64,000 nucleotides of DNA. It comes from Acidobacteriota bacterium (GTDB taxonomy: Bacteria > Acidobacteriota > Vicinamibacteria > Vicinamibacterales > UBA2999). Under the pieces are notes generated by a model. The model saw nothing but the letters and a program-made list of their open reading frames with translations, had not been told where the DNA came from and searched no databases. The translations under genes and the position numbers were made by a program. Location: positions 15,376 to 79,375 of the forward strand of contig JABFSA010000014.1 in NCBI GenBank assembly GCA_013140775.1, in the 5' to 3' direction. Position 1 is the stretch's first letter. The number at the start of each line of letters is the position of its first letter. Below are positions 612 to 36,894 of this stretch, one piece after another.

Positions 612-1445
612 ATGCGTTTCATTGCACCAGCCCTGCTCGCCCTCGCGACAGCCGTGACTGCCGCTTCCTTCGCTCCCGCACTGGCCGCGCAAGCCCCGGC
701 CCAGGCGTATGTCCCCGCGCGCACCCCCGACGGCTACCCGAACGTCGAGGGCGTGTGGCGTGCCTGGAACCTCGCGAAGTTCGATCTCGAAGACCATGGT
801 GCCAGGCCCGGGATTCCCGCCGGCCGCGGGTTCGTCGTCGATCCGCCTGACGGCAGGATTCCGTACCGACCCGAGATGCTGGCACGGCGCCAGAAGAACT
901 ACGAAGGCACGCTGACGCCGGACCCGCTTGCGAACACGGATCCACTGGCCAAGTGCTACATGCCCGGCGTTCCGCGGCTGACCTATCTCGGGTGGCCGTT
1001 TCAGATTATCCAGGACCAGCGGGACGTCAACTTCACGTACGAGTGGAGCCACAAGAAGCGGATCGTCCCGATTGGTGACACCAGTCCCCTGCCCGATCCG
1101 GACGGCGGCCTGAACCTGCGGTGGAACGGCATGGCCCGCGGCCGCTATGACGGCAACTCGCTCGTCGTCACGCTCGGGAATTTCAACGGGTACACCTGGT
1201 TCGACATGGCCGGCAACTTCCACAGCGATGCGCTCACCGTCGTGGAGCGGTACACGCCGGTTGGTCCCGACACCTTGCAGTACGAGGCCACGATGACCGA
1301 TCCGAAGGTGTTCACCCGCCCGTGGACGATCCGCATGGTGCTGCAGCGCCAGAAGGAGGTCGGCCTGCTCGATTACGAGTGCACCGCGATGCTCGACGAC
1401 CTCGGTATTGGTCACACGTTCCCGAGAGACTTCGATGTTCAGTAG
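612..1445 (+). CDS. Secreted DUF6152-associated 'large partner' protein, subfamily I
   Basis: Sec signal (ALA-AQ); RTPDGYPNVEGVW, DPPDGRIPY, DPLAKC, GRYDGNSLVV, DPKVFTRPW, C-terminal YEC. Confidence 0.8.
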   Translation: MRFIAPALLALATAVTAASFAPALAAQAPAQAYVPARTPDGYPNVEGVWRAWNLAKFDLEDHGARPGIPAGRGFVVDPPDGRIPYRPEMLARRQKNYEGTLTPDPLANTDPLAKCYMPGVPRLTYLGWPFQIIQDQRDVNFTYEWSHKKRIVPIGDTSPLPDPDGGLNLRWNGMARGRYDGNSLVVTLGNFNGYTWFDMAGNFHSDALTVVERYTPVGPDTLQYEATMTDPKVFTRPWTIRMVLQRQKEVGLLDYECTAMLDDLGIGHTFPRDFDVQ

Positions 1446-1461
1446 CCACGCAAGGAGCACC

Positions 1462-2406
1462 ATGAAGGTTCAATCTTCCGTCGCACTGTCGATCGCACTG
1501 GTCACGACCGGGCTGGTTGTCATGTCCGTGCCCGCCTTGGCCCAGGGACGCGGAGGAGGCGGACGCGGGGGCGGCGCGCCGAGGGTGGCGCCGGCGCTCC
1601 CGCCTGCCGGTCCGATTCCGCGCACCGCGGATGGGAAACCCAACCTTGAAGGGGTCTTCAGCGGCATGGGTTCGGGCCTGACGCATACCGTGATTCTCGA
1701 GACTCACACGTCCGGGTTCGGCATTCGCGGCGGCCCGAGCCTGATCATCGATCCGGCCGACGGCGTCATCCCGTACCAGCCGTGGGCGCTCGTCGAGCGG
1801 AACAAGCGCCGGGAAGACGTGAACGCCTACGAGGATCCCGTCGGCCACTGCGAGTTCTACGACATCGGACGCCTGCACTCGTTCGCGCAGCGTTTCATGT
1901 ACACGGGCGGCAACATCGCGATCGCCGGCCAGGAGCAGATCGTCCGCATCATCGACATGAACCGCAAGCAGCACCTGCCGGCAAGCATCCGTCTCTGGAA
2001 CGGCGATCCGATTGGCCGGTGGGAGGGAGACACGCTGGTCATCGACACGACCAATTTCAACGGCAGGACGCGCATGGCGCTCGGCGGCGACTTCTACAGC
2101 CCGAACGCCCAGACGGTCGAGCGTTACACGATGAAGGATTCGAACACCATCACGTGGACGATGACCATCACCGATCCGACGGTGTTCACGCGTCCGTGGA
2201 CGTTTACGACCGCAGCGCCGATGACGCGGCAGGTCGAAGGCAGCAACGACTGGAGCCGCGCGTTACGGCTCCTCGACCCGGCGTGGGAACACGACTGTCA
2301 TGAAGGCAACGTCGTCCTGCGCCACATGCGGAACGTCTACGACAAGGCGTACGGCGGCAAGTGGCGTCAGCAGACCGTCCCGGGATCGGTCCCAGCCGCG
2401 CCGTAA
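1462..2406 (+). CDS. Secreted DUF6152-associated 'large partner' protein, subfamily I (tandem paralog)
   Basis: AAGGAG RBS; signal peptide; RTADGKPNLEGVF, DPADGVIPY, DPVGHC, GRWEGDTLVIDTTNF, DPTVFTRPW, HDCHEGN. Confidence 0.8.
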   Translation: MKVQSSVALSIALVTTGLVVMSVPALAQGRGGGGRGGGAPRVAPALPPAGPIPRTADGKPNLEGVFSGMGSGLTHTVILETHTSGFGIRGGPSLIIDPADGVIPYQPWALVERNKRREDVNAYEDPVGHCEFYDIGRLHSFAQRFMYTGGNIAIAGQEQIVRIIDMNRKQHLPASIRLWNGDPIGRWEGDTLVIDTTNFNGRTRMALGGDFYSPNAQTVERYTMKDSNTITWTMTITDPTVFTRPWTFTTAAPMTRQVEGSNDWSRALRLLDPAWEHDCHEGNVVLRHMRNVYDKAYGGKWRQQTVPGSVPAAP

Positions 2407-2431
2407 CAGATCGGGACCGCCGCGCAGGCGG

Positions 2432-2929
2432 CTACGACTTCTTGTCGTAGATGGCCGTTTCGGTGTCGGAGCTGCCGTCCTGCGTGACAGTCTTCAGGAC
2501 AGTCAGCTCGTTGCCCTTGACCGTCCAGACCTCCCGGAACTCGATCACCGTATCGCCGGCTGGCGAGGAGAACGAGCGCCGCGAGGTGATGACCAGGGTG
2601 GCGCCGTCGAACTTGGCCTCGCCTGTTTCCGTGATGCCCTCGGGGGCGGCCACGTTGACGCGACTCCCATCCAGCTTGAAGACAGCCTTGAACGGATCCT
2701 GTCTGACGCTGGTGCGTTCGACCGTCAATTCGGTCGGCGACTGTGCGATGACCATCTGGCTGGGAAAGGGCACGTCGGCCCCGTTGCCCGCGATGCGCTC
2801 GCCGCTCTTGTCGAAGTTGAGGAGCCATGTCCCTGAGAGGTTCGGCATCGACTGCGCGAACGCCGCGCTCGCGGAAACGAACGTGAGTGCCGCAAACAGA
2901 ATGGTCGCGCGTAACGGCTTTCTGTTCAT
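2432..2929 (-). CDS. Secreted hypothetical protein, probable lipocalin-like beta-barrel
   Basis: Signal peptide AFA-Q then PNLSGTW; alternating beta-strand pattern; TACACT just upstream of ATG. Confidence 0.7.
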   Translation of the reverse strand: MNRKPLRATILFAALTFVSASAAFAQSMPNLSGTWLLNFDKSGERIAGNGADVPFPSQMVIAQSPTELTVERTSVRQDPFKAVFKLDGSRVNVAAPEGITETGEAKFDGATLVITSRRSFSSPAGDTVIEFREVWTVKGNELTVLKTVTQDGSSDTETAIYDKKS

Positions 2930-2976
2930 AGGGGCTGAGTGTACACCCGGTCGTCTCGGGTGACGACACCTGCGCT

Positions 2977-8342: not shown

Positions 8343-9989
8343 ATGGCCATCACCCGCCGCGACTTCGTACGGACCACCGCGTCGCTGGCTCCGTTCGTCG
8401 CCAGCCAGTTGACGAGCGCGCAAAGCCCGGCGACAGCCATTCAGGCGCCCGGGCGAACCGCCGCGCCTGCCGAACGCTTTGACTACGTGATCGCCGGCGC
8501 AGGGCACAACAGCCTCGTGTGCGCGGCCTACCTCGCCAAAGCCGGGAACCGCGTGCTGGTACTCGAAGGACGTCCATTGATCGGTGGCGGTGTAAAGACC
8601 GCTGAGGTCCTCCTGCCAGGCTTCAAGCAGGATCTCTGCTCGAGCGCGCACAACGGCATCAATCAGAATCCGATGCTGCGCGACAACGAGATCCCGTTGC
8701 GCGAGTACGGCTACGAAGTCATCGACCCGGACGTCGTCGTCCACATTCCCTTCCTCGACGGCGCATCCTTCACAGTGTTCAGGCGCGACGTTGCGCGTAC
8801 CGCCGAGACGATCGCACGCGTGTCAAAGAAGGATGCGGAGACCTTCACCCGGCTCCTGGCGTCGCGCCAGAAGGTGCTCGCGATGTCCGCCGGGGATCGC
8901 GCCAAGACCAGAGAAGGAGTCTTCTGGGAACGCATCGGAGCGCTTTCGGGATTCGATGCCGCGAAGCAGATCTGGGAGAGCCCGCACATGCGCGCGGCCA
9001 ACCTGTCGGCGGGCCACTTCGGCGGCGTGCCCGGCAGCGATTCCGGCACCGGCAACCAGGCGGTGTCGATGATGACCCACCTGAACGGGCGACCGATGCC
9101 GAAGGGTGGCTCGGGCATGCTGACGGTTGCCCTTGGCCGCTACCTCGAGGCGAACAATGCGGTGATCCTGACCAGCAAGCCGGTCGCGCGGTTGATCATC
9201 GAGAACAACCGGTGCACGGGTGTCGAGTGCGTGGACGGCAGCCAGTATCGCGGCCAGAAGGGCGTTGTCTCGACGATTCATCCCAAGAACCTGATCGGCA
9301 TGGCGCCGCGCGAGCTCTGGGGCGATGCGCTGCTCGACACGGTGGACATCTGGCAGCCCGAGCACGCGATGTTCGCGTTTCACTTCGCGCTCGCCGAATC
9401 GCCGAAGTATCCCCTTTCAACCGGCGGCACGATCGGCAGTTGTGAAGCGTCGATCATGCAGCGGCCCGAGAGCATCTTTCAGCTGAACACCGATCAGGCG
9501 CGCGGTGAGTTGAATATCGAGGACTACCCTCTGCAGATCGTGCATCCTTCCGTGTTCGACACCACGCGCGTGCCACCGGGTTACGGCGCCGTCAAGATCG
9601 AGGGCACCATGCCCTACGGACTGAAAGAAGGGCCCCACCACTGGGATGCGATTAAGGAGCGCGTGGCAGACCAGCTCCTGACCTACTACCTGCGTCACAC
9701 GGCCAACCTCACGAAAGACAAAGTTCTGGCGAAGTTCCTGCTCAGTCCAATCGACATCGAGCGCATGAATCCCTCGATGTGGCGAGGAAGCGTGCACCAT
9801 AGCGTCCGCGAACTTGGAAACTTCGCGCCGTATCGCATGCCGATCCCGGGTCTGTATCAGACGGGAGGATCGACTGCACCAGGCGGCTCGGTCACGGGCC
9901 AGCCGGGACGAAACGCCGCGATGGTCATCCTGCAGGATGACGGGAAGACGCTGGAGCAGGTGGTCGGAAAGGCGCCACGCAGTGCGTAG
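8343..9989 (+). CDS. Tat-exported FAD-dependent oxidoreductase, phytoene dehydrogenase-like (COG1233-type)
   Basis: AGGAG RBS; TRRDFV Tat motif; VIAGAGHNSLVCAAYLA dinucleotide fold; PKGGSGML; GLYQTGGSTAPGGSVTGQPGRNAA. Confidence 0.88.
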   Translation: MAITRRDFVRTTASLAPFVASQLTSAQSPATAIQAPGRTAAPAERFDYVIAGAGHNSLVCAAYLAKAGNRVLVLEGRPLIGGGVKTAEVLLPGFKQDLCSSAHNGINQNPMLRDNEIPLREYGYEVIDPDVVVHIPFLDGASFTVFRRDVARTAETIARVSKKDAETFTRLLASRQKVLAMSAGDRAKTREGVFWERIGALSGFDAAKQIWESPHMRAANLSAGHFGGVPGSDSGTGNQAVSMMTHLNGRPMPKGGSGMLTVALGRYLEANNAVILTSKPVARLIIENNRCTGVECVDGSQYRGQKGVVSTIHPKNLIGMAPRELWGDALLDTVDIWQPEHAMFAFHFALAESPKYPLSTGGTIGSCEASIMQRPESIFQLNTDQARGELNIEDYPLQIVHPSVFDTTRVPPGYGAVKIEGTMPYGLKEGPHHWDAIKERVADQLLTYYLRHTANLTKDKVLAKFLLSPIDIERMNPSMWRGSVHHSVRELGNFAPYRMPIPGLYQTGGSTAPGGSVTGQPGRNAAMVILQDDGKTLEQVVGKAPRSA

Positions 9990-10530
9990 GGGATTCTTCG
10001 TATTGCTGCTGGCGCCGTTGCTCGCCCTGTTCGTCACAGGAGTGTTAAGAGCACAGCAGGGCGCGACCGCGACGCCGGAAGTGCCCCGGCACCTGGCGCC
10101 GCCACCCGCGCCGGTGCAGCCACTCCCCTTCAGTCACAGGACGCACGTCAAAGTTGGCGCGCAGTGCCAGACCTGTCACAGCGCGACGACGGGCGCGCAG
10201 ATGACGTTTCCGGAAACGGCGACGTGCATGAAGTGTCATCGAACGATTGCGGCCAACCGGCCGACGATCGTCAAGCTCGCCGAATTCGCCAAGGGCACCC
10301 AACCGATTCCGTGGGTGCGCGTGTTCCGGGTGCTACCGGGCGTCACGTGGACTCATCGTCCCCACCTGCAGGCCGGCGTGCGGTGCGAGACGTGTCACGG
10401 CAACGTCCCCGAGATGGACACGATGTCGATGGCCACATCGGTGACGGGAATGGCGGCGTGCGTGACGTGTCATCAGGAGCGCAAGGCCAGCACCTCGTGC
10501 ACGACATGTCACGTGTGGCCGGCGACGTAA
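9982..10530 (+). CDS. Pentaheme cytochrome c (c3/c7, ActA-like)
   Basis: Five CxxCH motifs (CQTCH, CMKCH, CETCH, CVTCH, CTTCH); QPLPFSHRTH and IPWVRV; GTG start overlaps the upstream stop. Confidence 0.88.
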   Translation: MRRGFFVLLLAPLLALFVTGVLRAQQGATATPEVPRHLAPPPAPVQPLPFSHRTHVKVGAQCQTCHSATTGAQMTFPETATCMKCHRTIAANRPTIVKLAEFAKGTQPIPWVRVFRVLPGVTWTHRPHLQAGVRCETCHGNVPEMDTMSMATSVTGMAACVTCHQERKASTSCTTCHVWPAT

Positions 10531-10546: not shown

Positions 10547-10936
10547 TCAGTCGAACCGTTCGTTCTCGAGAATGCCCCAGCTCCACCCATCCTTCGGACG
10601 CTTGAAGGTGAGCAGCCGTACGCGATGGTCGGCCGCATTGCGGCCCGGATTGCCGGTGATGATCACTTCGTCGCCGGGCTTCAGCGTGTCTCTCGACACC
10701 GTGCCGCTCAGCTGAGCAGGCGAACCCCACTCGACGACGTAGCGGTTGGTTGTCCCGTTCTTCTCCTTGACCATCAGGTGCACGAAGGAATGCGGATTCC
10801 TGAGAAGGAACTGGACAATCGAGCCTTCGATCGTGACGGACTGATCTTCGAGATAGGTCGCCGCAAACGAGTGATGAGCTGACGCCTGCGTCCCCAACCC
10901 GAGGACGAGCAGCGTTGCGACGAGGTAACGTCTCAT
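10547..10936 (-). CDS. DUF6152 family secreted protein
   Basis: ASA-HHSFAATY, IEGSIVQF, RNPHS, VEWGS, LKPGDEVIITG. Confidence 0.85.
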   Translation of the reverse strand: MRRYLVATLLVLGLGTQASAHHSFAATYLEDQSVTIEGSIVQFLLRNPHSFVHLMVKEKNGTTNRYVVEWGSPAQLSGTVSRDTLKPGDEVIITGNPGRNAADHRVRLLTFKRPKDGWSWGILENERFD

Positions 10937-11023: not shown

Positions 11024-11410
11024 TCATTCGACGCGGCCTCGCCACGAGAACCCGTCGCTCGGCCGATCGAGGCTCGAGATCAGCAGTCGCAGCGACGCCG
11101 AATCACGTGCCGCTTCGCCGGTGACCTTCAGCAGGTCGCCCGGCTTCAGGGTGGTGCGGGTGATCTTGGACTGGGCGAGGACGTTGGTCGAACCCCACTC
11201 GAGTGCCCAGGTCTTGACCGAGCCGTCCTTGTCGGTGACGTCAACCCGCATGAATGAATGCGGGTTCCGCCACACGAACTCCTTGACGACACCCTCGATC
11301 TCGACCTTCTGGGTCGAATCGTAGGTGGCGGAAAACGAGTGATGCGCGAACACGCCATCCGCCCCGGCGAACAAGGCGAGCCCGACGAACAGCACCAGGA
11401 TCCTGGTCAT
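11024..11410 (-). CDS. DUF6152 family secreted protein (tandem paralog)
   Basis: GGAG RBS; VFA-HHSFSATYD, EGVVKEFVWRNPHS, LEWGS, LKPGD. Confidence 0.85.
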   Translation of the reverse strand: MTRILVLFVGLALFAGADGVFAHHSFSATYDSTQKVEIEGVVKEFVWRNPHSFMRVDVTDKDGSVKTWALEWGSTNVLAQSKITRTTLKPGDLLKVTGEAARDSASLRLLISSLDRPSDGFSWRGRVE

Positions 11411-16169: not shown

Positions 16170-16179
16170 GCTCCAGCCG

Positions 16180-21120: not shown

Positions 21121-21173
21121 GTGTTCTCCTGATTGGGAGCAGAGTCGAGGCGAGGCTTTGAACTCGCGGATCT

Positions 21174-21977: not shown

Positions 21978-22372
21978 CAATCGACGACACCTTCCCACAG
22001 CCACCCGTCGGCCGGGCGCTTGATGCTGAATACCCGCAATCCCTTGATCGATGGATCACGCCGCGGCTCACCGGCGGCGATGATCTTGTCGCCAAGCTTG
22101 ATCGTGGTGCGGGACACCGGATACTTCGATGCGGTCAACTGGCTGCTCGAGCCCCACTCGAGATTCCATGTGTCGGCGACGCCTTCCTTGTTCGTGACGT
22201 CGATGCGAATGAACGAGTGCGGGTTCCGCCACACGAACTCTTTGACCACCCCTTCGACTTCTACCCGCTTGGTGTTGTCGTAGGCGGCGGTGAACGAGTG
22301 ATGAGCAAGCGCGAGGTTGGCCCCGGCCAGCGTCGCAGCGCCCACGAGACATAACACGATCATGCGTTTCAT
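21977..22372 (-). CDS. DUF6152 family secreted protein
   Basis: ALA-HHSFTAAYD, EGVVKEFVWRNPHS, LEWGS; start/stop overlaps with both neighbours. Confidence 0.85.
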   Translation of the reverse strand: MKRMIVLCLVGAATLAGANLALAHHSFTAAYDNTKRVEVEGVVKEFVWRNPHSFIRIDVTNKEGVADTWNLEWGSSSQLTASKYPVSRTTIKLGDKIIAAGEPRRDPSIKGLRVFSIKRPADGWLWEGVVD

Positions 22373-23409: not shown

Positions 23410-24314
23410 CACTGACCCCGATCCCCTTCTCCCATCACGGTCTTCGGACGAGGCAGTGTCTTCATCTTTGCGATGTATTCGGGATACATCGTCTCTACGC
23501 CTCCAAGCCTCGGCTCGTACGGCGTGCCAAACGCGTCGGTCATGTTCGGATCGTGCGCTGGCAGAAAACTCTTGCCAGGCAACGAATGCGGCACCGTTCC
23601 CGGTTCGACGACGGTGCCGGTCGCCTCCTCGCATGGATACGGAGGCAGCACGAGGTTCGGGTCGTTCACCCAGAACAGGGATGTCCGGAGATACGGTGCG
23701 TCCATGTAGATCGGGTCGTAGATGATCACCGTCGCGCGCAGGTAGTTGCCGATGCGTTTCCATCGTGTGCGTACGGTCGCGCGATCGCTCCGCATGGGTC
23801 CCCACCGTCGAAGGTAGTTTTCCTTCAGATGTGTTGTCGTCTGCACGAGCGTGTTGCCTTCGAACTCGCCCAACGAGAAGCCGCTCCAGCTGTAACGCAC
23901 CTGGTCGGATGGCCTCGGACGGTTGTCCAGCCAGATATCCGATTCCTGCTCGCGCATCGACAGGCGGCCGTGAAAGGCGACGATGCGTTGCGTGGAATCT
24001 TCGACCTCGGGGACCCACCGCAACTGCGAGGGTCCTGCCTCAATCGAATAGTCGAACGAGTGCGGACGGCACACCAGTTCGGCAACTTCGAAATTCTCGG
24101 GAACCCAGCTGAGCGCCCGCTGACGCCCAGCCTCGTTGAGCGGCAGGCCGGCGAGGTCGCCGTCCATGCCGCTTCCATCCTGATTCCTGGCGAGCGGCCG
24201 CCAGAGGCCCGCCAGATCCACTTGCGCGGATACCGGCGACGCCAGCGTCACACCCACCAGGACGAGTACCCCACGCGCGAACGCCGTAACCCCAGTCGAA
24301 CGCTTCTGTTTCAC
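23409..24314 (-). CDS. Secreted 'large partner' protein, subfamily II
   Basis: VSA-QVDLAGLW; GLPLNEAGR; VCRP; IWLDNRP; GEFEGNTL; YPC; VPHSLPG; ETMYPEY. Confidence 0.8.
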   Translation of the reverse strand: MKQKRSTGVTAFARGVLVLVGVTLASPVSAQVDLAGLWRPLARNQDGSGMDGDLAGLPLNEAGRQRALSWVPENFEVAELVCRPHSFDYSIEAGPSQLRWVPEVEDSTQRIVAFHGRLSMREQESDIWLDNRPRPSDQVRYSWSGFSLGEFEGNTLVQTTTHLKENYLRRWGPMRSDRATVRTRWKRIGNYLRATVIIYDPIYMDAPYLRTSLFWVNDPNLVLPPYPCEEATGTVVEPGTVPHSLPGKSFLPAHDPNMTDAFGTPYEPRLGGVETMYPEYIAKMKTLPRPKTVMGEGDRGQ

Positions 24315-24361: not shown

Positions 24362-27300
24362 TCAGAACTGGTACTTCAGCGCCAGCTGAATGATGCGCGG
24401 ATCGCCCGCGGAAATAATCTGGCCGAAGGTGCCGCTGTTGAGCGCCGCAACGGGGTCGTCATAGTGCACGCGGTTCAACAGGTTGAACACCTCGCCCCGG
24501 AACTGAACCTGCTGCTTGCCACCAAAGCGGAACGAACGGGTGACGCCCATGTCCACGTTGAAGCGACGGGGGCCCACCAGGCTGTTGCGTTCCAGATTCC
24601 CGAAAGTACCAGCCGCCGGGGCCTGGAAGGCCGCGGGATTGAGCCAGCGCAGCCCGTCCTTCACATACACATCGTCGGATATCTTGTTCGGCCGCTGACC
24701 GGCCTGTCCGTTCAGTGCGTTGTCCACACCCGTCTGGACATCGAAGTGCCTGCCGCTGCGCGCGGCCACGATGGCCGACACCTGCCAGTCGCGCGTCAGG
24801 ACACTGAGTGCGCCACCTTGCGAGCCAGGAATCTGATACACCACCGACATGTTACCGACGTGCCGCTGATCTGTGGTGCCGCAGCTGCCGCGGTCGAACG
24901 CCACGTCGCCCGGCTTCGTGAGATTGATGCCTGCGATCCCCGGCTCGTAGTTGATGACGTCCGTGACGCACTCAGACATCGTGTAGTTACTCGAGAGGAA
25001 GAGGCCCCGCGTTCCGCGATGCTGCAGGGATAGCATCAGCGCGTTGTACTCCGAGGTGCCGACGGGGTTGACAGCATAGATCGCGCCGTACAGCCGACCC
25101 GCCGCGGGATTCTCGAGCGTAAGCAGCCGTCTCGCGGCCGTTGTTGCGGTGGTCGCGCCCGGGCTGTAGATGGCGGGGTTCAGCTGATCGCCGACCGGGA
25201 GGCGGTTACCGCGATTGGCGAGGTAATTCGCTGAGACCATCCACGATGCGCCGAGCTGCCGCTGCAGACTGACGTTCCACTGGTCCGAGTACGGTGGTTT
25301 GCCATCGAGAGGGAACGTGACGAACCCACCGCCGGGCGGGAAGATCATGTCGGCGCTCTCGATGAGCGGGAATGGGTTGCCGCCGGGCGTGTTGACCCAC
25401 GGATCGTCGAACACCGCATTGGTCACGTCGATCTGCGTGCCGAAGGGCGTGAGTCGATCGAACCCGGCGAAATACTGCATGTGAGGCAAGTCGAAGAACC
25501 GGCCCCACGCCGCGCGCACGGTCATACGACCGTCGCCAAGCGGGTCCCACGCCGCGGCCAGACGCGGTGCGAAGTTCGGCAGATACGATTCGTTCTCGAG
25601 GCCAGGATCACCGTCGAACAGCACGCCCACCGGAGCGTTCTTGAACCGTGTGCTGCGAACGCCGGCGCGGAACTGTTCGAGACTGAAGTGATTGAAGCGC
25701 CCGAGATCGTTCTTGTACTGGAAGAACGGATCCCAGCGGAGGCCAACGTTCAGCGTGAGCCTCGGCGTCACCGTCCACGCATCCTGGACGTACGAGCCCA
25801 AGTAGTTCATGTGGCCGAAGGGCGTGAAGGGCTGCGCTTGATTGAACGCCGACGGACGTCCGAGCAGGAAGTCCGCGAGCCCGAGCCCCGTGATACTGCC
25901 GTTGAAGACGAAGTTGCCCGCACCGGCGCCAATCGAATCCCCGTCCAGACCCGAACGGATGAAGTTGAAGCCCACACCAAGTTGGTGCTGTCCGCGGACG
26001 ACGCTGAAGTCGTCGCTGACCTGGAATGCTGTCGTCGCGTACCTGCTGGGTCTGGCGCCAGACGGTCCCATCGAAAAGCCGCCCGACACGCTATAGGGCC
26101 CGAAGCCGGGGAGAGGAATGGCGACGTTCCGGATCCCGAGCGTGCCGTGATCGAAGTAGGGCACGTATTCCTTACGAACATCGGCACTGTTGTAGACCAC
26201 GCGGAACGAATTGACGGTATTCGATCCGAGCAGCAAGGTGTCGCCGATCACAACCGAGTGAATGGTGTCGTTGATTGGACCGTTCGCGTAGGCCAGCACG
26301 TTGTCCGGATCGTTGTCGGGCTCCGACTCGTACTGTGCGAGCTGGTAGCGGCCGAAGAGCGAGTGGTTGTTGTTCAACTGGTAATCGAGACGGCCGACGC
26401 CGAGGTGCTCGAAACTCTGCGTCTTCCGGGCGAAGAAGGTCTGGCCGCAGTCGTTCACCGGCGCGGGTAGCCTCGCCTGGAGGTTACGCGCGGCCGGCGA
26501 GAAGAGCGCCGGATCGACCCGAGTGCCGACGAACGGCGCGCGCAGTGCGATCGTGCGGCCCGCATTGCACGCCGGCGACGTGATCGCGGTGAAATCTCCG
26601 GCCATCATCGCGGGCGTCGGTACGAACTGAAAGAAGTCGGTGGGGGTCACGTTCACGCGGGTGCCCTGGTAGGCGCCGAAATAGAACAGTTTCCCGGGAA
26701 GGATGGGGCCACCCAGCGTGCCGCCGAACTGATCGCGGCGCAGACCGTCATCGCGGCGCTTGCCGTCCGGGCCAATCGACGCAAAGGCGTTCTTGGCATT
26801 GAGTGAGGAGTCGCGCATGAACTCGAACGCACTGCCGCTCATGACGTTCGTGCCTGACTTCGTGACGGCGTTGACGGCCGCGGATGAATGGTGCCCGTAC
26901 TGTGCTGGCAGCGCGCTCGTCTCGACCTTGAACTCCTGCATCGCATCGGGAAACGGCAGGGGCAGGCTCAGATTGTTGAACGGATCGTTGTGCGTGCCGC
27001 CGTCGAGGCTGTACGTCACGCCGTTCGACAGTCCTCCCCCAACGACGATCGTCGTGTTGGGGTAACTGCGGATAGCTGTGTTCAACATCGACGCGCTCGG
27101 CGCGTCGGCGGTGCCCGCTCCGCCCGTCGCCACACCCGACTGGAAGATCAGCTCGGTCAGCTGCCGGCCGTTGAGCGGCAGCTCGAGGACCTGCTCGTTC
27201 GTGATCACCTGCCCGATGCCGGGGTTACGCGTCTCGACCAGCGCCGCACTGCCCTGCACCGTGACGGTCTCTTCGAGCTGGCCGAGCTCGAGCGTCACGG

Positions 27301-27649
27301 CAAGCGTGGGATTCGAGCCGACCTGCAGGACGATGCCGGTCTGGACGTAGGTGCGGAATCCCCCGAGTGACGCCTCGAAACGGTACGGTCCAACCGGCAG
27401 ATTCTGCAGGATGTACGAACCGGTCTCGTTGGTCACGACCGTGCGGGTCAACCCCGTGCCGGTGTTCGTGACCGTTACCGTCACGCCGGGCAGAGCGAGT
27501 CCGCCCTGATCCCGGACGCTACCGTTGATCTGTGCGGTGGCCTGGGCGAATACGGTGGCTGTGGTGTAGTGCGCGGCTTGAGCCGCGCCTGCACAGAGAA
27601 GAAGGAGCCAGAAGCCGCGACGCACGAACGTGGTGAACGCGTGGCACAT
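24362..27649 (-). CDS. TonB-dependent receptor, Oar/acidobacterial type with carboxypeptidase-regulatory-like N-domain
   Basis: DQGGLALPGVTVT, LPLNGR, PFPDAMQEFKV, TKSGTN, QFGGTLGGP, C-terminal PRIIQLALKYQF. Confidence 0.92.
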   Translation of the reverse strand: MCHAFTTFVRRGFWLLLLCAGAAQAAHYTTATVFAQATAQINGSVRDQGGLALPGVTVTVTNTGTGLTRTVVTNETGSYILQNLPVGPYRFEASLGGFRTYVQTGIVLQVGSNPTLAVTLELGQLEETVTVQGSAALVETRNPGIGQVITNEQVLELPLNGRQLTELIFQSGVATGGAGTADAPSASMLNTAIRSYPNTTIVVGGGLSNGVTYSLDGGTHNDPFNNLSLPLPFPDAMQEFKVETSALPAQYGHHSSAAVNAVTKSGTNVMSGSAFEFMRDSSLNAKNAFASIGPDGKRRDDGLRRDQFGGTLGGPILPGKLFYFGAYQGTRVNVTPTDFFQFVPTPAMMAGDFTAITSPACNAGRTIALRAPFVGTRVDPALFSPAARNLQARLPAPVNDCGQTFFARKTQSFEHLGVGRLDYQLNNNHSLFGRYQLAQYESEPDNDPDNVLAYANGPINDTIHSVVIGDTLLLGSNTVNSFRVVYNSADVRKEYVPYFDHGTLGIRNVAIPLPGFGPYSVSGGFSMGPSGARPSRYATTAFQVSDDFSVVRGQHQLGVGFNFIRSGLDGDSIGAGAGNFVFNGSITGLGLADFLLGRPSAFNQAQPFTPFGHMNYLGSYVQDAWTVTPRLTLNVGLRWDPFFQYKNDLGRFNHFSLEQFRAGVRSTRFKNAPVGVLFDGDPGLENESYLPNFAPRLAAAWDPLGDGRMTVRAAWGRFFDLPHMQYFAGFDRLTPFGTQIDVTNAVFDDPWVNTPGGNPFPLIESADMIFPPGGGFVTFPLDGKPPYSDQWNVSLQRQLGASWMVSANYLANRGNRLPVGDQLNPAIYSPGATTATTAARRLLTLENPAAGRLYGAIYAVNPVGTSEYNALMLSLQHRGTRGLFLSSNYTMSECVTDVINYEPGIAGINLTKPGDVAFDRGSCGTTDQRHVGNMSVVYQIPGSQGGALSVLTRDWQVSAIVAARSGRHFDVQTGVDNALNGQAGQRPNKISDDVYVKDGLRWLNPAAFQAPAAGTFGNLERNSLVGPRRFNVDMGVTRSFRFGGKQQVQFRGEVFNLLNRVHYDDPVAALNSGTFGQIISAGDPRIIQLALKYQF

Positions 27650-27712
27650 ATGTCCTCTACCGGTCATAAGAGTGACCGTTTTAGCAAGTGAACGATTCGA
27701 GCCTCGACCTGA

Positions 27713-28720
27713 CTAACGATTTGAACCCTCAGCGGCGGTCCGGCCCCTCGGCCCGAGCTGGCCGAATCCGCCGTCATTGCAGCTCAAGTTGGGAGCGCCA
27801 CCAGGAAGACCCTGGCGCTCGATCCAGCCACAGCAGTAACCGGGCGCGCGTGTGCCGCACGCAGCCGGTGGAACGTAGGTATTGCGGATGGTTTTTCGAT
27901 ACTCGGGATACAGCGTGTACGCGTGACCCATGGCGGCATCTTTTGGCAGGTTGAACGTGCGCACCATGAAGTTCTCTTCGGGGTTCTTGCCTGGCAGATA
28001 GTGCGGAACCTGGCCCGTGTCTTCGAGACTGGGGATCTCGTTCCCGGTCACGCAGATACCATCCTCAAACTGATTGCCGCGGGGATCATACTGCCAGACG
28101 CGGCTCACGACGTGCGGTTCGCTGAGGTAGTAGGGATCCCGCTGCACCGTGATGATCGTCAAGAGGTCGTCGTGCCGCGAGATGAACGTGGTCATAGTGG
28201 ACTCGTCGCTCGCAGGGATGCCCACGCCACGGCGAATCCAGCTCGCCTTCACGTGCGTGGTCTCTGCCACGAGGATGTCGCCCTGCCAGCGTCCAGTCGT
28301 GAATCCTCCTTCGACGTGCTGTGCATTGGCTGAAGGATGGGGTCGTCCGTCCATCCAGATCCTGAGCTCGCCTCGCAGGTTGTCGCCCGCAAGAATCCAG
28401 GCAATCACGTCAGTCCCGCTTGGTCCGAGCTCTTTGACGATCTGCACACCACGTGGCCGGTATTGGAAGACCCCGACGCCCTGGGCAAGACACTGCCGTT
28501 CATAGGTGGACGGCAGATTTGACGTATACAGCAGCGCCTTCGCCCGACCGTCGTCAGTGAGAGGCATGCCTGTGAAGTTCCCCATGAACTCCCCGGGGCC
28601 CCGCTCGATGTAGTCCTCGTACATCCGTGAGGTGTACGCGCCGGACAGTTCCATCTGGGCGAACGCGGGTGTCGCAGACGCGACCAGGATGAGTGCCAGG
28701 GCTCCGACTCGGTTCAACAT
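27713..28720 (-). CDS. Secreted 'large partner' protein, subfamily II with Cys-rich tail (close paralog of 15159-16169)
   Basis: RMYEDYIERGPGEFMGNFTGMPLTDDGRAKALLYTSNLPS; PGYCCGWIERQGLPGGAPNLSCNDGGFG. Confidence 0.82.
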   Translation of the reverse strand: MLNRVGALALILVASATPAFAQMELSGAYTSRMYEDYIERGPGEFMGNFTGMPLTDDGRAKALLYTSNLPSTYERQCLAQGVGVFQYRPRGVQIVKELGPSGTDVIAWILAGDNLRGELRIWMDGRPHPSANAQHVEGGFTTGRWQGDILVAETTHVKASWIRRGVGIPASDESTMTTFISRHDDLLTIITVQRDPYYLSEPHVVSRVWQYDPRGNQFEDGICVTGNEIPSLEDTGQVPHYLPGKNPEENFMVRTFNLPKDAAMGHAYTLYPEYRKTIRNTYVPPAACGTRAPGYCCGWIERQGLPGGAPNLSCNDGGFGQLGPRGRTAAEGSNR

Positions 28721-29433: not shown

Positions 29434-29444
29434 ACCCGGTCGGC

Positions 29445-29531: not shown

Positions 29532-30440
29532 ATGCGCGCGTGCACGTGGATTTTTCTGGCCATCCTTGCCTTCGCCGTCATTCAACGTCCATCGGTCACC
29601 CTGGCGCAGGGCGGCGGGGCCCCGGGCGGCTGGGTGACACCGGACTACGCCGAGCCTCAAGTGCCCGTGGCCCGTCGCTCGTCAGCGCCGCGGCGGAGCA
29701 TGGCCGGCACGTGGATCCCAATCGGTCGTTTCGGCACCGGCACACAGGCGGGCGGCGTGCACCTCAAGCCGAACGATGGGCGTCCCGAGAACCAGCTCCC
29801 GTACACGCCTTTCGGACTGAAGCTCTACGAGACGCACAAGGCGCTCGAGGGCGCGGATGCCGTACCGCCGGCACTGGGTAACGACCCGAGAAACCTCTGC
29901 GAGCCCCTCGGCATGCCCCGCGTGAACCACTACAACCTCAACCTCGTGCAGATCATGCAGGACGACTACAAGGTCGCGATCCTGTATCAATTCGACAACA
30001 GGTGGCGTGTCATCTGGACCGACGGCCGCCAGCTGCCGACGGTCGTCGAGGGAGGCGCGGTGAAGCTCGGTGACGAGATCCGCGAGCAGCGATTCCTCGG
30101 CTATAGCGTCGGCCGCTGGTCGGACGATACGACGCTCGAGGCCGTGACCGTGGGGACCATGCCCGAGGATCGTGTGTGGCTCGACTCGACGGGTCGTCCG
30201 ATCACCGATCAGGTGCGCGTCACCGAGCGGATCCGACGGCTCGATTCCCACACCATCGAGTGGTCGGAAACGATTGACGACCCGAAGGTCTATTCGAAGC
30301 CATGGGAGACGATGAGGCTCCCGATGCGGCTGGCCGATCCTCGTACCGACGTCATGGAGTACTACTGTTCGCCCGTCGAGCAGCAGAACTACAACCGGCG
30401 ATTCGGCAACAGTGCGAGCGGCGGCGCAGGGGGCCGGTAA
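29532..30440 (+). CDS. Secreted 'large partner' protein, subfamily I
   Basis: Signal peptide; NDPRNLCEPLGMPR; RVIWTDGR; GYSVGRWSDDTTL; DDPKVYSKPW; MEYYC. Confidence 0.8.
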   Translation: MRACTWIFLAILAFAVIQRPSVTLAQGGGAPGGWVTPDYAEPQVPVARRSSAPRRSMAGTWIPIGRFGTGTQAGGVHLKPNDGRPENQLPYTPFGLKLYETHKALEGADAVPPALGNDPRNLCEPLGMPRVNHYNLNLVQIMQDDYKVAILYQFDNRWRVIWTDGRQLPTVVEGGAVKLGDEIREQRFLGYSVGRWSDDTTLEAVTVGTMPEDRVWLDSTGRPITDQVRVTERIRRLDSHTIEWSETIDDPKVYSKPWETMRLPMRLADPRTDVMEYYCSPVEQQNYNRRFGNSASGGAGGR

Positions 30441-30471: not shown

Positions 30472-30879
30472 ATGTTCAGAGTGCGAGTATGTGTCCTGAT
30501 CGCATCCCTGGGACTCGTGGAGCCAGTTGCGATGGCCGCTCATCACGGCAGCGCGGCGTTCGAGTCTGGCAAGAGCGTGGTGCTCAAGGGCACTGTGAAG
30601 GAGTGGGTGTACTCCAACCCGCATTGCCTGCTCGTGCTGGACGTCAAGCGTGAGGACGGCACGCTCGTCGAATGGGTGGCGGAGGGCCAGGCGCCCAACA
30701 CCATTTTCCCTGTGGGCTACCGCAAGGATTCGTTCAAGCCTGGAGATCAGGTGGCGATCACCGTCGAGCAGGTGAAGACCGGCCAGCCAGTCGGCCGGAT
30801 TCTCGAAGCGGTTCTCGCCGACGGCAGCGTGCTGGGGCGAGCCTCCTCGGCAGGCGCCCCCCCGCCGCGCGATCAGTAA
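30472..30879 (+). CDS. DUF6152 family secreted protein
   Basis: GGAGG RBS; AMAA-HHGSAAFE, KGTVKEWVYSNPHC, WVAEG, FKPGDQV. Confidence 0.85.
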   Translation: MFRVRVCVLIASLGLVEPVAMAAHHGSAAFESGKSVVLKGTVKEWVYSNPHCLLVLDVKREDGTLVEWVAEGQAPNTIFPVGYRKDSFKPGDQVAITVEQVKTGQPVGRILEAVLADGSVLGRASSAGAPPPRDQ

Positions 30880-35294: not shown

Positions 35295-35310
35295 AGCAAG
35301 AGGGTTGCCG
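35295..35310 (-). promoter_or_regulatory. Sigma-54 (-24/-12) promoter, apparently leaderless
   Basis: CGGCAA-CCCTC-TTGCT, 11 nt before ATG 35283. Confidence 0.68.
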
Positions 35311-35323
35311 GTCCGTAATGAGG

Positions 35324-35353
35324 TCGAGCCCCCAGCCCCGAGTCCCGAGCCCC
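35324..35353. repeat. Short heptamer tract (CGAGCCC/CGAGTCC); related tract at 44428-44450
   Basis: CGAGCCC CCAGCCC CGAGTCC CGAGCCC. Confidence 0.6.
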
Positions 35354-35500
35354 GGAACGTGGCCTTACAGATGCCCGCAATTCGCCACCGAATCGGTAAG
35401 AAACGGGTGGGTAGTGGCGAAGTCAGCCATGGGCTGCGATACTTACGGGGACACGTTGGTCGGTACGGCACCGGCTCCGGCACGGACGAACGAAGGAGTA

Positions 35501-35932
35501 ATGGGCATGGGCATTACGAGGCGAGCAGTGGCAATCGTCGGCGTCATCACCGCGCTGGCGGGAATCTCGGTGCAGGCGCACCACTCCTGGACGGCGGTGT
35601 TCGACGAAGACAAGCCGATCGTCGTGACGGGAACCCTGACGAAGGTCGAGTTCGTCAATCCCCACGGCTGGATCTGGATCGACGTCAAGAACGCAGACGG
35701 GACGGTCGCCAGCTATGGCGTCGAAGGCGGCGCGCCCAACGGCCTCATCCGGAACGGTGTCACCAAGAACTCGATGAAGCTCGGCGAAACGCTGACCGTC
35801 CGTGGATATGGCTCGAGAGACGGTTCGAACCTCATCGCCGGCGTGAGCTACACAAAAGCAGACGGCTCCCAGTTCTTCCTTGGCAATGAAGGCGCCGAGA
35901 ACGCAGCCAAAGCCAAGGGCAACCTCAAGTGA
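35501..35932 (+). CDS. DUF6152 family secreted protein
   Basis: AAGGAG RBS; VQA-HHSWTAVFD, TGTLTKVEFVNPHGW, VEGGAPN. Confidence 0.85.
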   Translation: MGMGITRRAVAIVGVITALAGISVQAHHSWTAVFDEDKPIVVTGTLTKVEFVNPHGWIWIDVKNADGTVASYGVEGGAPNGLIRNGVTKNSMKLGETLTVRGYGSRDGSNLIAGVSYTKADGSQFFLGNEGAENAAKAKGNLK

Positions 35933-36894
35933 GGGTGTCGGACAGTCAAGCGAGAACACGGGTTCCGGCAGGCGTGAAGACGATCGCGTTCGCAGTCGCG
36001 ATATTCATCTGCGTTCTGGCCGGGTCTCTCCCGACCCGCATGCAGGCGCAGTCGAGGCTGGCAACAGCCGGCGTGTATTCCTCGGGTCAGGCGCAACGCG
36101 GCGCGGCCGACTACAAGGCCCGCTGCGCGAAGTGCCATGGCGCTCAACTCGAAGGCCTCGCCGGCCCTCCACTGGCGGGCGCGGATTTTCTCAACATCTG
36201 GAAAAGCCAGCCGCTGTCGGACCTCTACGGCAAGGTTCACATCACGATGCCGCTGGATAGCCCTGGCACGCTGACGCCAGCGCAGTCCACGGCCCTCGTG
36301 GCGTACATCCTTCAAGGCAACAAGTTTCCGGCGGGCGGCGCGGATCTGCCTTCAGACGAGCCGGCGCTGAAGCTGATTGCACTCGCACCGGCAGGCACTC
36401 CCGCAGCACCGAGAACTGCCGCAGCAGCCGTGTCGTTCCCGGCAGTCGGCACGCTGAACCAGGTCATGCGCGGCATCCTGTTTCCCAGCTCGAACGTCCT
36501 GTTCGACGTGCAGACGCAGGATCCCGGCGCATCGGAGAAAGCTGGAGCCAAGGCCGGGGCCGCCACCACGTCCGTCCGCTACGGCAATGTCTACGGGCCG
36601 TGGATCGGCGTTGACGTCGCGGCCATCGCGATCGCGGAGTCTGCCCCGCTGCTCATGACACCGGGACGACGGTGCGAGAACGGCAAGCCCGTGCCGGTGG
36701 ACCGCGCCGACTGGCAGATGTACGTACAAGGACTCGTCGAGGCGGGTCGCGTCGCCTATAAGGCGTCTCAGTCCAGAAGCCAGGACGCCGTCAGCGAAGC
36801 CACCAACCAGATCGCTGACTCCTGCGCCAACTGCCATCGCGTCTACCGCGATGTGGCGAATCCTGCGATGCGGTGTACGCCCCCAGCCCCTTAG
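35929..36894 (+). CDS. Diheme cytochrome c: class I domain fused to a cytochrome c'-like helical domain
   Basis: CAKCH with downstream TMP (Met ligand); C-terminal CANCHRVYR; GTGA overlap with the DUF6152 stop. Confidence 0.85.
   Translation: MRVSDSQARTRVPAGVKTIAFAVAIFICVLAGSLPTRMQAQSRLATAGVYSSGQAQRGAADYKARCAKCHGAQLEGLAGPPLAGADFLNIWKSQPLSDLYGKVHITMPLDSPGTLTPAQSTALVAYILQGNKFPAGGADLPSDEPALKLIALAPAGTPAAPRTAAAAVSFPAVGTLNQVMRGILFPSSNVLFDVQTQDPGASEKAGAKAGAATTSVRYGNVYGPWIGVDVAAIAIAESAPLLMTPGRRCENGKPVPVDRADWQMYVQGLVEAGRVAYKASQSRSQDAVSEATNQIADSCANCHRVYRDVANPAMRCTPPAP

Follow-up and report, generated by a model that had tools for sequence, protein, structure and literature searches.

An expanded periplasmic two-protein system of DUF6152 proteins and larger secreted partners in an acidobacterium, probably a new metal-containing machine

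The acidobacterial genome analysed here encodes two families of secreted proteins, the small DUF6152 proteins (S) and a family of larger partners (L), which make up a periplasmic two-protein system and probably represent a new metal-containing machine. Both S and L are unstudied proteins, and a literature search on the accessions and on the pairing of a histidine brace with an OB fold returned nothing. A preliminary description of the window, a stretch of 64,000 nucleotides, had pointed to five S and eight L genes as an expanded system. This observation is confirmed, and it was understated: there are 87 copies of S and 108 paralogs of L genome-wide. Together, S and L genes account for 193 of about 4,258 gene calls obtained with a crude ORF/GC3 heuristic, or about one gene in twenty.

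All five small genes in the window belong to DUF6152, as had been proposed, with PF19649 matches of E 1.6e-20 to 1.8e-27 and 73–96 bits (cut-off 27 bits). S1 (10547..10936, minus strand; E 1.6e-20), with the mature N-terminus HHSFAATY, lies in tandem with S2 (11024..11410, minus; E 2.7e-24), for which the start MTRILV was confirmed and which has no adjoining large partner. S3 (21977..22372, minus; E 8.1e-24) sits in an operon, flanked by a metallo-beta-lactamase-fold (MBL) gene and the L gene 21174, with overlapping ATGA and TGATG junctions on either side. S4 (30472..30879, plus; E 1.6e-23) follows the L gene 29532. S5 (35501..35932, plus; E 1.8e-27) is directly followed, through a GTGA junction, by the cytochrome c gene 35929, which takes the place of a large partner.

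It had also been suggested that signal cleavage exposes His-His at the mature N-terminus of S, and that NPH and a downstream Glu are kept. The motifs A-HHS/G (cleavage after the Ala), NPH and EW/EG are visible in the translations of all five window genes, and a rule-based signal-peptide check of all 87 genomic copies was consistent with cleavage before His-His in each of them. A hydrophobic core and an n-region with R/K are present in 87/87 copies; the residue before the cleavage site (-1) is Ala in 84 copies and Gly in the other 3, and 83/87 have V, L, A, T, G or S at position -3. The His-His pair and the His of NPH are both invariant (87/87 each), the downstream Glu is kept in 70 copies and missing in 17, and the median pairwise difference outside the kept motifs is about 69%. 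The motifs are likewise kept in 6/6 low-copy acidobacterial loci, in the four proteobacterial copies inspected and in 15/15 fusion proteins. The AF2 model of S4 (pLDDT 86.8; first ten residues pLDDT 68) has a five-strand OB fold that matches SSB-type OB folds (VIA, Z 9.2). Here, NPH (residues 26–28) lies just ahead of strand 29–36 and the Glu (residue 48) at the end of strand 42–49, so the two are predicted at adjoining ends of one hairpin. We regard S as a putative OB-fold protein of about 110 residues, in which signal peptidase most likely cuts just before the invariant His-His. A metal site at His-His/NPH is probable: the His-His with its free amino terminus, the NPH His at the start of strand 2 and the Glu at the end of strand 3 would form a single, histidine-brace-like site, for which Cu or Fe is favoured.

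The eight large window genes match no Pfam or NCBIfam model. They are real paralogs, in agreement with the preliminary description, with one correction to its three subfamilies: II and III group with each other (links of E 1e-5 to 1e-10). Group I comprises the plus-strand genes 612..1445 (own HMM E 7e-68; no Pfam/NCBIfam match), 1462..2406 and 29532..30440, with mutual E values of 1e-9 to 1e-31, and within the window it is weakly tied to groups II and III. Gene 612 and its tandem neighbour 1462 are 34% identical (E 7e-31). The former is of the type found as first L in L-L'-S operons, with orthologs of 35–44% identity in 6/6 low-copy loci, and the latter, which the second L of such loci matches best, is of the L' type. 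In group II, all on the minus strand, 15159..16193 carries a Cys-rich C-terminal extension, has an uncertain start (candidate Met positions at 16163–16232) and is 68% identical to 27713..28720, the first gene of a minus-strand cluster spanning 28720–19477; 23409..24314, between a TonB-dependent receptor gene and an MBL gene, is 30% identical to both (E about 1e-28). Group III, also on the minus strand, consists of 16180..16938 (own HMM E 3.6e-52), directly downstream of the MBL gene 16938–17993, and 21174..21977, the partner of S3; these are 50% identical.

Genome-wide, BLAST links at 1e-10 join all 108 L paralogs into a single component. The motifs proposed for the family were recovered over these paralogs: G-x-W (G in 102, W in 99 of 108), the Cys pair (103 and 103) and D-P (107 and 101, with a later P in 100). 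A G.S.G motif is present as well (107, 92 and 87). An Arg (97/108), a Ser (92/108) and a Glu (99/108) are also kept, and none of the His residues of L is invariant. No sequence similarity of L to any Pfam or PDB family was found, and among the 1,618 homologs of L 29532 no Pfam domain occurs in any of 120 among the matches listed. The AF2 model of this copy (pLDDT 87.1, pTM 0.86) is a calycin-like barrel, and the best-scoring folds it matches come from calycins without exception (VIA, Z 5–7.7), among them nanoKAZ (7.7), CRBP (7.2), UnaG (7.0) and nitrobindin (7.0). The best of these Z scores (7.7) lies in the range that the fold-comparison tool calls common, and a Foldseek search returned no match below E 1e-3. 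We consider L a putative barrel of about 260 residues, of the FABP/nitrobindin type and with a conserved Cys pair, which is highly variable and most likely the ligand holder.

S and L very probably form a functional unit. An L gene lies within 300 bp on the same strand for 68/87 S genes, against a mean of 3.2 and a maximum of 9 in 200 random placements, which excludes chance; 19/87 S genes are without an adjacent L and 40/108 L genes without an adjacent S. In the window, the L gene 29532–30440 is followed after a 31-bp gap by S4, as had been described. The other pair had been given as 22372/21977, and a small gene does adjoin a large one there; these coordinates are those of S3 itself, and its real partner is 21174, which overlaps the S3 stop codon through the TGATG junction. 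Paired S and L paralogs have diverged together (Mantel r 0.61, maximum 0.12 in 1,000 permutations), and their nearest neighbours agree in 30/63 pairs. Both families also co-occur beyond this genome: of 41 related genomes, 27 have both, 13 neither, one L only and none S only. Furthermore, two S-L fusions of the form SP-HH-S-linker-L, with no second signal peptide, are encoded in this genome, and one more is P0128. One fusion constitutes a conserved ortholog group found in Acidobacteria and Gammaproteobacteria, in which S always comes first; PF19649 is present in 117/120 of the relatives listed, and 115 of these 117 have 325–399 aa and 56–90% identity. From gene order, co-diversification and the conserved S-first fusion, we conclude that S and L act together genetically, and they presumably also bind each other. 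The earlier idea of small-large heterodimers thus stands as regards a common unit, supported by adjacency, co-diversification, presence/absence and fusion, but a simple heterodimer does not describe every case, as low-copy genomes have the operon form L-L'-S (6/6). Some relatives have expanded L with few S (5 S and 61 L in G004, 5 and 37 in G010, 1 and 19 in G040), and L can therefore work without S.

The neighbours named in the preliminary description, a TonB-dependent receptor, MBL-fold proteins and cytochromes c, are all present in the window by domain matches. The receptor gene (24362..27667, minus; CarboxypepD_reg and OMP_b-brl_4; PF25183 E 6e-185, PF13620 E 2e-19) sits inside the L/MBL/S cluster, and a second one (38502..42101, plus; PF25183 E 8e-179) lies outside the range first described. 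Two SoxH-like MBL-fold proteins are encoded on the minus strand: 22369..23400 (start approximate; PF00753; TIGR04559 E 3.8e-10, well below the model cut-off), directly upstream of S3, and 16938..17993 (PF00753 E 9e-10; TIGR04559 E 1.1e-23, below the model cut-off), upstream of L 16180 and L 15159. The last gene of the minus-strand cluster, 19477..21177, encodes a larger MBL-like protein with a weak match (PF00753 E 2.4e-4; its 21.5 bits fall slightly short of the 22.7 cut-off). The two-haem cytochrome c coupled to S5 (35929..36894, plus; PF13442 E 4e-11, PF01322 E 2.6e-5; two CxxCH) combines a class I domain with a cytochrome c'-like C-terminus. A five-haem cytochrome c (9814..10530, plus; Cytochrome_C7/c3 matches, five CxxCH motifs) is convergent with S1/S2 and lies downstream of an FAD amine-oxidase-like gene.

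Across the genome, 39/68 TonB-dependent receptors are within three genes of S or L (7.5 expected) and 22/68 are immediately adjacent on the same strand, the enrichment statistics being descriptive because the neighbour families were chosen with the data already in view and the gene calls were crude. Conversely, a receptor lies no more than three genes away from only 30/87 S and 41/106 L genes. The link, which the preliminary description had proposed, is also seen on Sphingomonadales plasmids, and coupling of S-L units to these receptors is likely. Within three genes of S/L are also 13/14 members of a di-haem cytochrome family (9/14 immediately adjacent on the same strand), 4/4 cbb3-type cytochromes c, 10/14 MBL-fold proteins and 6/8 DUF6644 membrane proteins. 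The same neighbour families recur in Novosphingobium, Croceibacterium, Azospirillum and Caballeronia. Conservation across phyla is highest for a DUF6644 membrane protein and c-type cytochromes, which the preliminary description had not marked as core components.

From these analyses, we tentatively favour a reading in which S and L are parts of one secreted unit, present in about 70 copies, whose metal site would transform a receptor-imported ligand. The units would operate in the periplasm behind TonB-dependent receptors, with c-type cytochromes and small DUF6644 membrane proteins as the putative link to electron transfer or the inner membrane. The metal site may act on the ligand held by L, through oxidation or stripping, rather than the unit serving carriage alone; redox catalysis by the S-L unit is conceivable, if doubtful. 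One family with many paralogs, which speaks against an enzyme, is usual for binding proteins such as SusD and solute-binding proteins.

S-L pairs could instead be non-catalytic periplasmic binding or shuttle proteins in the role of SusD or solute-binding proteins. L would capture the ligand released by the receptor, S would cap it, and the complex would hand it over to a partner in the inner membrane, for example DUF6644, the His-His site then serving ligand or partner recognition rather than chemistry. About 70 paralogous pairs beside 68 receptors fit a binding-protein pattern, the calycin fold is a classic ligand carrier, the kept Arg, Ser and Glu of L could bind a polar head group, and the membrane protein DUF6644 is a conserved neighbour. 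However, if no metal is bound, three histidines invariant in 87/87 copies, one of them N-terminal after processing, are difficult to account for, the strong enrichment of three cytochrome c families suggests electron transfer, and ABC transporter genes are not enriched near S/L (5/50, 5.5 expected); we consider this reading rather unlikely. Even less probable is a joint role of S and L in binding haem or another tetrapyrrole, with the macrocycle in the nitrobindin-like L barrel and ligated by S histidines; such a unit would carry electrons or resemble a haemophore. The fold matches of L include nitrobindins and a Riemerella haemophore (Z 7.0, 6.2 and 5.0), S would offer three histidines where L has no invariant one, and cytochromes are frequent neighbours. 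Yet these matches favour haem binders no more than fatty-acid or retinoid binders, no haem-handling genes were noticed nearby and the copy number is ill-suited to haem uptake, which makes this reading highly improbable.

A core resembling the metal-trafficking pairs CopC/CopD or YcnI/YcnJ is quite unlikely, and 87 copies are far above any metal-homeostasis need. N-terminal histidines of S would bind Cu (or Fe, Zn, Ni) and pass the metal to DUF6644, L barrels would bind receptor-imported metallophores or metal chelates, and cytochromes would reduce the metal. The known pairs likewise have a small beta-rich secreted protein, in which cleavage would expose an N-terminal His beside a distal His, encoded next to a small multi-pass membrane protein, here DUF6644. 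DUF6644 adjoins DUF6152 in Acidobacteria, Alpha- and Betaproteobacteria (5/6 proteobacterial and 3/4 Pfam-scanned low-copy acidobacterial loci), and in Caballeronia and Azospirillum the module consists of just S and a DUF6644 gene after it, with L absent. Four DUF6644 proteins match the CopD model of Pfam below threshold (E 5e-6 to 6e-4), but the similarity is not significant, with a profile-profile probability of just 6.6%. True CopD was detected solely in G005 and G012, both relatives without DUF6152, a complementary distribution that is based on two genomes, and an unsystematic look noticed no metal-responsive regulator beside the genes. In known histidine-brace carriers, His1 is exposed by signal-peptide removal (review PMC10952591). 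In contrast to CopC and YcnI, which are beta-sandwiches, S is a predicted OB fold that begins with a His-His dyad; its genes number in the dozens per genome, are linked to TonB-dependent receptors and come with a calycin partner that looks obligatory.

The preferred reading of a metal site acting on an L-held ligand also recalls other systems. LPMOs act alone on polymer surfaces, whereas in S-L a small ligand would be held by the barrel as a subunit of its own. The comparison with LPMOs and CopC made earlier stands as an analogy in the signal-exposed N-terminal His, and not in the fold, as S has an OB fold rather than a histidine-brace beta-sandwich; no sequence or fold relation of S to LPMOs was found. 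LPMOs are likewise secreted, with a signal peptidase-exposed His1, a second conserved His and cytochrome-type electron donors nearby, according to established knowledge and the review PMC10952591. SusC/SusD loci share the many paralogous loci, the receptor with N-terminal CarboxypepD_reg and diversified secreted partners. In S-L loci, however, the partner proteins have predicted OB and calycin folds behind ordinary signal peptides, accompanied by cytochromes and MBL-fold proteins instead of glycoside hydrolases, and Pfam scans of the window and of recurrent S/L neighbours revealed no SusD-like gene. A precedent for a small metal-binding periplasmic OB fold is the copper/silver chaperone CusF, which coordinates its metal through internal His, Met and Trp residues rather than through the N-terminus; this analysis found no sequence relation to S. 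Like FABP, nitrobindin, lipocalin and siderocalin, L is modelled as an up-and-down barrel, and its near-invariant G-x-W near the N-terminus is similar to the G-x-W signature of lipocalins. Unlike these calycins, L is about twice the size of FABP, with long N-terminal and inserted segments and a conserved Cys pair, and pairs with or is fused to an OB-fold protein.

The window belongs to a source assembly of 4.86 Mb in 183 contigs (94% complete); its GC content is approximately 64% and its close homologs carry an Acidobacteria label. All five small secreted proteins of the window, here called S (S1 at 10547, S2 at 11024, S3 at 21977, S4 at 30472 and S5 at 35501), scored 73.5–95.7 bits against the DUF6152 model PF19649 (gathering cut-off 27; E 1.6e-20 to 1.8e-27), which confirms their assignment in the preliminary description. 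At the predicted cleavage site (↓), the translated proteins have A↓HHS(F/W) or A↓HHG, followed by NPH and then EW or EG, so that the NPH motif and downstream Glu claimed for the five proteins are present in each. The eight larger secreted partners, here called L, matched nothing in Pfam or NCBIfam. Pairwise comparison of these eight places 612, 1462 and 29532 in group I, while group II contains 15159 and 27713 (68% identity) together with 23409 (30% identity to each), and group III contains 16180 and 21174 (50% identity); groups II and III are connected at E 1e-5 to 1e-10. The two 68%-identical members of group II (15159–16232 and 27713–28720) are extended at the C-terminus by approximately 90 residues, the tail of which is Cys-rich (PGYCCGW...C.DGGFG); the other L proteins lack this extension.

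The direct adjacency proposed for 29532 and 30472 is borne out by a gap of 31 bp between this L gene and the downstream S4, an operon-like arrangement. On the minus strand, positions 28720–19477 encode, in order, a group II L, a TonB-dependent receptor, a second group II L, a metallo-beta-lactamase-fold (MBL) protein, S3, a group III L and an MBL-like protein; ATGA and TGATG overlaps join the MBL gene, S3 and L 21174. S5 directly abuts a downstream cytochrome c gene. Near-identical DNA to positions 21100–31000 recurs in more than one study, as contigs of the DNA runs X2 and X3 match fractions of 0.95 and 0.90, respectively, of the words sampled from it; run X1, with 0.99, is possibly where the window itself came from. 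No RNA run was listed as containing this segment.

Both families are strongly expanded in the source genome. The Pfam model found 87 DUF6152 proteins above the cut-off, against none in 14 control genomes, and an HMM built from the eight window L genes and iterated across all six-frame ORFs retrieved 108 L paralogs. Together, S and L account for 193 genes, which is 4.5% of the approximately 4,258 genes called by a crude method. The L paralogs form a single BLAST component at 1e-10 (108/108), which, with the mutual similarity of the window genes, bears out their proposed paralogy; at 1e-20 they separate into clusters of 81, including window group I, and 22, including groups II and III, and a few singletons. 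In a library of 1.8 billion proteins, the L family comprises 27,895 cluster representatives at E ≤1e-3 and 15,879 at ≤1e-10. Despite this size it has no Pfam model: searching 62 L members at E ≤1 gave nothing recurrent, with Imm72 in three of the 62 (best E 0.0012). NCBIfam returned nothing for either family, and PDB chains matched the L and S profiles only at chance level (CsdE, E 0.012; SUMO2, E 0.1). The ESM Atlas gave only unnamed clusters for L (0.94), and for S, with DUF6152 excluded, MamS/MamX-domain clusters at 0.81–0.82, a score under the trusted level that serves as a lead only.

From gene order, fusions and paralog comparisons, we conclude that S and L are two predicted secreted families that are genetically coupled, naturally fused and co-diversifying. 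A same-strand L gene lies within 300 bp of 68 of the 87 S genes, against a mean of 3.2 and a maximum of 9 in 200 random placements, which rules out chance clustering; S comes first in 40 of these adjacent pairs and L in 28. Among 41 genomes of the same order, which are related and hence non-independent, 27 have both families, 13 have neither, one carries just a single L and none carries S without L, per-genome figures being lower bounds from 91 (DUF6152) and 62 (L) upwards. Both counts agree with the co-occurrence foreseen in the preliminary description. Across 63 pairs, the S and L distance matrices are correlated (r 0.61; maximum 0.12 in 1,000 permutations), and in 30 pairs the nearest S paralog is the partner of the nearest L paralog. 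S and L thus duplicate and diverge as pairs, although such a correlation by itself is no proof of contact.

Natural fusions also join the two families. In two ORFs of the source genome, a single signal peptide precedes A↓HH and DUF6152, and a linker connects DUF6152 to L; a library protein from another metagenome (P0128) has the identical layout. One of the two belongs to a conserved ortholog family: PF19649 was found in 117 of the best 120 relatives listed, of which 115 are 325–399 aa long with 56–90% identity and mostly 90–100% coverage, and several are labelled Gammaproteobacteria. S is N-terminal in 15/15 aligned fusions, the order that a site needing a free amino terminus would require. 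Six of eight longer S3 relatives (P0121–P0126) were not accepted as fusions, as they look like frameshifted assemblies reading S into L; P0128 was the only one of the eight to be counted. Against a strict one-to-one pair stand 19 unpaired S genes and 40 unpaired L genes in the source genome. Some relatives are rich in L and poor in S, such as genome G004 with 5 S and 61 L. In all six genomes examined that have few copies, the order is 612-type L, 1462-type L, S, and tandem L-L proteins of 450–530 aa with two L-profile stretches each (P0129–P0136 and similar, from the public library) agree with this L-L'-S operon.

Across phyla, receptors, cytochromes, MBL proteins and DUF6644 membrane proteins are genetically linked with S and L. 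The following counts apply to a distance of up to three genes from an S or L gene and are descriptive, since the families were selected post hoc and gene calling was crude. TonB-dependent receptors lie near S or L in 39 of 68 cases (7.5 expected), as do 13 of the 14 di-haem cytochromes of a family whose N-terminus resembles CytoC_RC, 4/4 cbb3-type di-haem cytochromes, 10/14 SoxH-like MBL proteins and 6/8 DUF6644 proteins; histidine kinases (12/104) and ABC ATPases (5/50) remain at background level. The receptor, MBL and cytochrome c neighbours described for the window recur genome-wide. As same-strand immediate neighbours we counted 22 of the 68 receptors, 9 of the 14 di-haem cytochromes and 9 of the 14 MBL proteins.

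Gene maps of the source genome reveal two types of module. The first combines a receptor, S and a group I L, with or without a cytochrome; the second, found in the window, combines a group II L, MBL, S and a group III L, with or without a receptor. The L-MBL-S-L order of the window cluster (19477–28720) is repeated on five other contigs (C37, C96, C119, C172 and C183), and the second type suggests that group II and III L proteins work with a periplasmic MBL hydrolase. The MBL neighbours reached best scores of 84 and 39.6 bits, against cut-offs of 300 (TIGR04558) and 280 (TIGR04559), and are MBL-fold relatives, not members, of the quinoprotein relay and SoxH-like zinc metallohydrolases; a role in beta-lactam resistance was rejected because the scores are far under every NCBIfam cut-off. 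Two further contigs (C47 and C116) carry near-duplicate modules of an ankyrin-repeat protein, two L, S and a receptor, in which the secreted ankyrin-repeat protein is an unusual companion.

In an even phylum sample of 121 genomes, each at least 90% complete, DUF6152 was found in 11, with more than 10 matches only in the window's order and a single copy elsewhere; per related genus, the number ranges from 0 to at least 91. It is also encoded on plasmids, with 15 records (tblastn) from Novosphingobium, Azospirillum, Croceibacterium, Sphingobium and Caballeronia. The Croceibacterium plasmid locus reads S-S-L-receptor. In N. humi, a GH39-like gene, L and S follow each other beside two DUF6644 genes, while Novosphingobium KACC 22771 has a cytochrome c, L-S-L-S, two DUF6644 genes and two receptors. 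In strain PP1Y, S-L and an S gene preceded by two DUF6644 genes occur in the vicinity of a receptor and a LigB dioxygenase, and the Caballeronia and Azospirillum loci consist of S-DUF6644 only. DUF6644 also adjoins in three of four loci scanned in Acidobacteria with few copies, once together with a cytochrome c', and is the most widely conserved DUF6152 neighbour across three bacterial classes (observed at loci L046, L060, L062, L063, L067–L071, L076, L077, L080 and L082). It is a four-helix membrane protein of approximately 160 residues, often present as a tandem pair, with an invariant His in helix 2, Lys, Trp and a C-terminal Gly-Arg.

The most constant part of S is its N-terminus. In the alignment of all 87 source-genome copies, His-His and the His of NPH are invariant (87/87 each), the Pro and Asn of NPH are present in 86 and 79 copies and the later Glu in 70, and directly ahead of His-His 84 copies have A and 3 have G. 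Every copy has, upstream of His-His, a hydrophobic core and an n-region with R or K; one of V, L, A, T, G or S occupies position −3 in 83 copies, and the median lengths are 22 residues for the signal peptide and 110 for the mature protein. From these rules we infer that signal cleavage would expose an N-terminal His-His. The combination of A↓HH and NPH is also found in six acidobacterial genomes with few copies, in the four proteobacterial S copies inspected and in 15/15 fusion proteins. Outside the conserved motif residues the paralogs differ by approximately 69%, which places the focus of selection on these residues. In a histidine brace, His1 is freed by signal cleavage and, with its amino terminus and a second His, binds Cu through three nitrogens in a T-shaped arrangement. 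In S, a metal site would be built from the processed His-His together with the Glu and the His of NPH.

A model of S4 built from 44 paralogs (pLDDT 86.8; 68 for the first ten residues) has strands at residues 7–23, 29–36, 42–49, 70–78 and 84–91 and a helix at 52–58 (DSSP), and is predicted as a five-stranded OB fold with the helix between strands 3 and 4. VIA-align gave a best Z of 9.2, with SSB, PriB and tRNA-synthetase anticodon-binding domains as the top matches (Z 8–9.2); 22 chains reached Z ≥8, all OB folds among the matches listed, while Foldseek gave only weak OB matches. In the model, NPH directly precedes strand 2 and the Glu is located where strand 3 ends; the two positions are adjoining ends of one hairpin. 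Nucleic-acid binding by the OB fold was ruled out because S is secreted.

Calycins are up-and-down barrels of eight to ten strands. The model of L 29532 (62 sequences; pLDDT 87.1, pTM 0.86) has a core barrel that resembles them with middling scores (nanoKAZ, Z 7.7; CRBP, 7.2; UnaG, 7.0; nitrobindin, 7.0): the top seven VIA rows and most others are calycins, with Z only 5–7.7 over 105–134 aligned residues, and the best Foldseek E-value is 4e-3. Among the 108 paralogs, the Gly and Trp of G-x-W are conserved in 102 and 99, an Arg, a Ser and a Glu in 97, 92 and 99, and the Cys pair and D-P motif, as proposed from the window genes, in 103 and 103 and in 107 and 101. No invariant His was found among these paralogs.

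We tentatively favour, at somewhat under even chances, the reading of S-L as a metal-dependent periplasmic unit that processes receptor cargo with electrons from cytochromes: L would hold the ligand inside its barrel, S would dock on L and the cytochromes would supply electrons to the unit. That the two are pure binding or shuttle proteins is somewhat unlikely. A metal route like that of CopC and CopD draws on four DUF6644 proteins that match CopD (PF05425) at 22–29 bits, under the cut-off of 32.1, and on true CopD, which among 31 related genomes exceeds its Pfam cut-off only in G005 and G012, both without DUF6152; a complementary distribution of CopD and DUF6152, resting on these two genomes, is possible. 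However, this lead to CopD is a weak one: when DUF6644 was compared with two CopD sequences, hhalign returned a probability of only 6.6%, and DUF6644 was not accepted as a CopD member. Its resemblance to CopD and to DUF2214 (E 0.013–0.14) appears weak and not significant, and we consider this route unlikely. That S and L form a haem-binding pair is highly improbable.

In a more specific form of the favoured metal-dependent unit, S would represent a new class of N-terminal-histidine metal centre, of histidine-brace type on an OB fold, and would dock onto a substrate-specific calycin L; the result would be a combinatorial repertoire of approximately 70 periplasmic oxygenases or oxidases, each with its own receptor and receiving electrons via cytochromes and DUF6644. 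This form is a doubtful one; if true, the system would correspond, as an oxidative version, to polysaccharide utilisation loci (PULs), its targets being small organic molecules of soil and water.

We rate the S-L system as categorically new in architecture. The known histidine-brace scaffolds are beta-sandwiches (Ig-, fibronectin- or cupredoxin-like), whereas the S model is an OB fold and would represent a new scaffold and not a known class; for S, the A or G at position −1 (87/87) predicts, by rule, a cleavage that would expose an N-terminal His as in these proteins. The pertinent passages of a 2023 review name LPMOs, pMMO/pAMO, CopC, X325, Bim1, PmoF1 and YcnI as histidine-brace proteins, and mention among them no OB fold and no two-subunit design (PMC10952591). 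A full-text literature search, with subscription journals outside its coverage, found no paper on DUF6152/PF19649, DUF6644 or an OB-fold histidine brace, and, for Acidobacteria and TonB-dependent receptors, no title or abstract of relevance. The PUL-like organisation suggested earlier is not of the SusC/SusD type, in which a SusD-family lipoprotein adjoins the receptor: among the Pfam matches of 41 window ORFs and 19 recurrent neighbour families, no SusD family was found.

Acidobacteria and Sphingomonadales have many receptors, no SusD and few obvious downstream enzymes, a gap that S-L fits, and the system could explain the periplasmic fate of receptor cargo in these groups. If Cu or Fe binds at the His-His site, the few N-terminal-histidine metal centres would gain a new scaffold and a two-subunit design, with a bearing on biocatalysis and on organic-matter turnover by abundant soil and water bacteria. 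The minimal versions in cultured, tractable Proteobacteria (Azospirillum brasilense Sp7, Novosphingobium) make the system testable.

Three further loci of the window deserve mention. At 60418–62485 (minus strand), a MASE1-PAS histidine kinase ends within HisKA (profile 1–30 of 66) and an overlapping ORF has the HATPase, which looks like one gene split by a frameshift or assembly error. A 158-residue ORF at 42131–42607 (plus strand), directly downstream of the second TonB-dependent receptor, has a match to the amine-oxidase family that is confined to the C-terminal third (profile 292–441 of 443) and may be a gene fragment or have a mis-called start. Convergent with S1 and S2, positions 8253–10530 (plus strand) encode an FAD amine-oxidase-like protein and, after it, a cytochrome c with five haems (five CxxCH motifs), possibly a periplasmic flavocytochrome pair.
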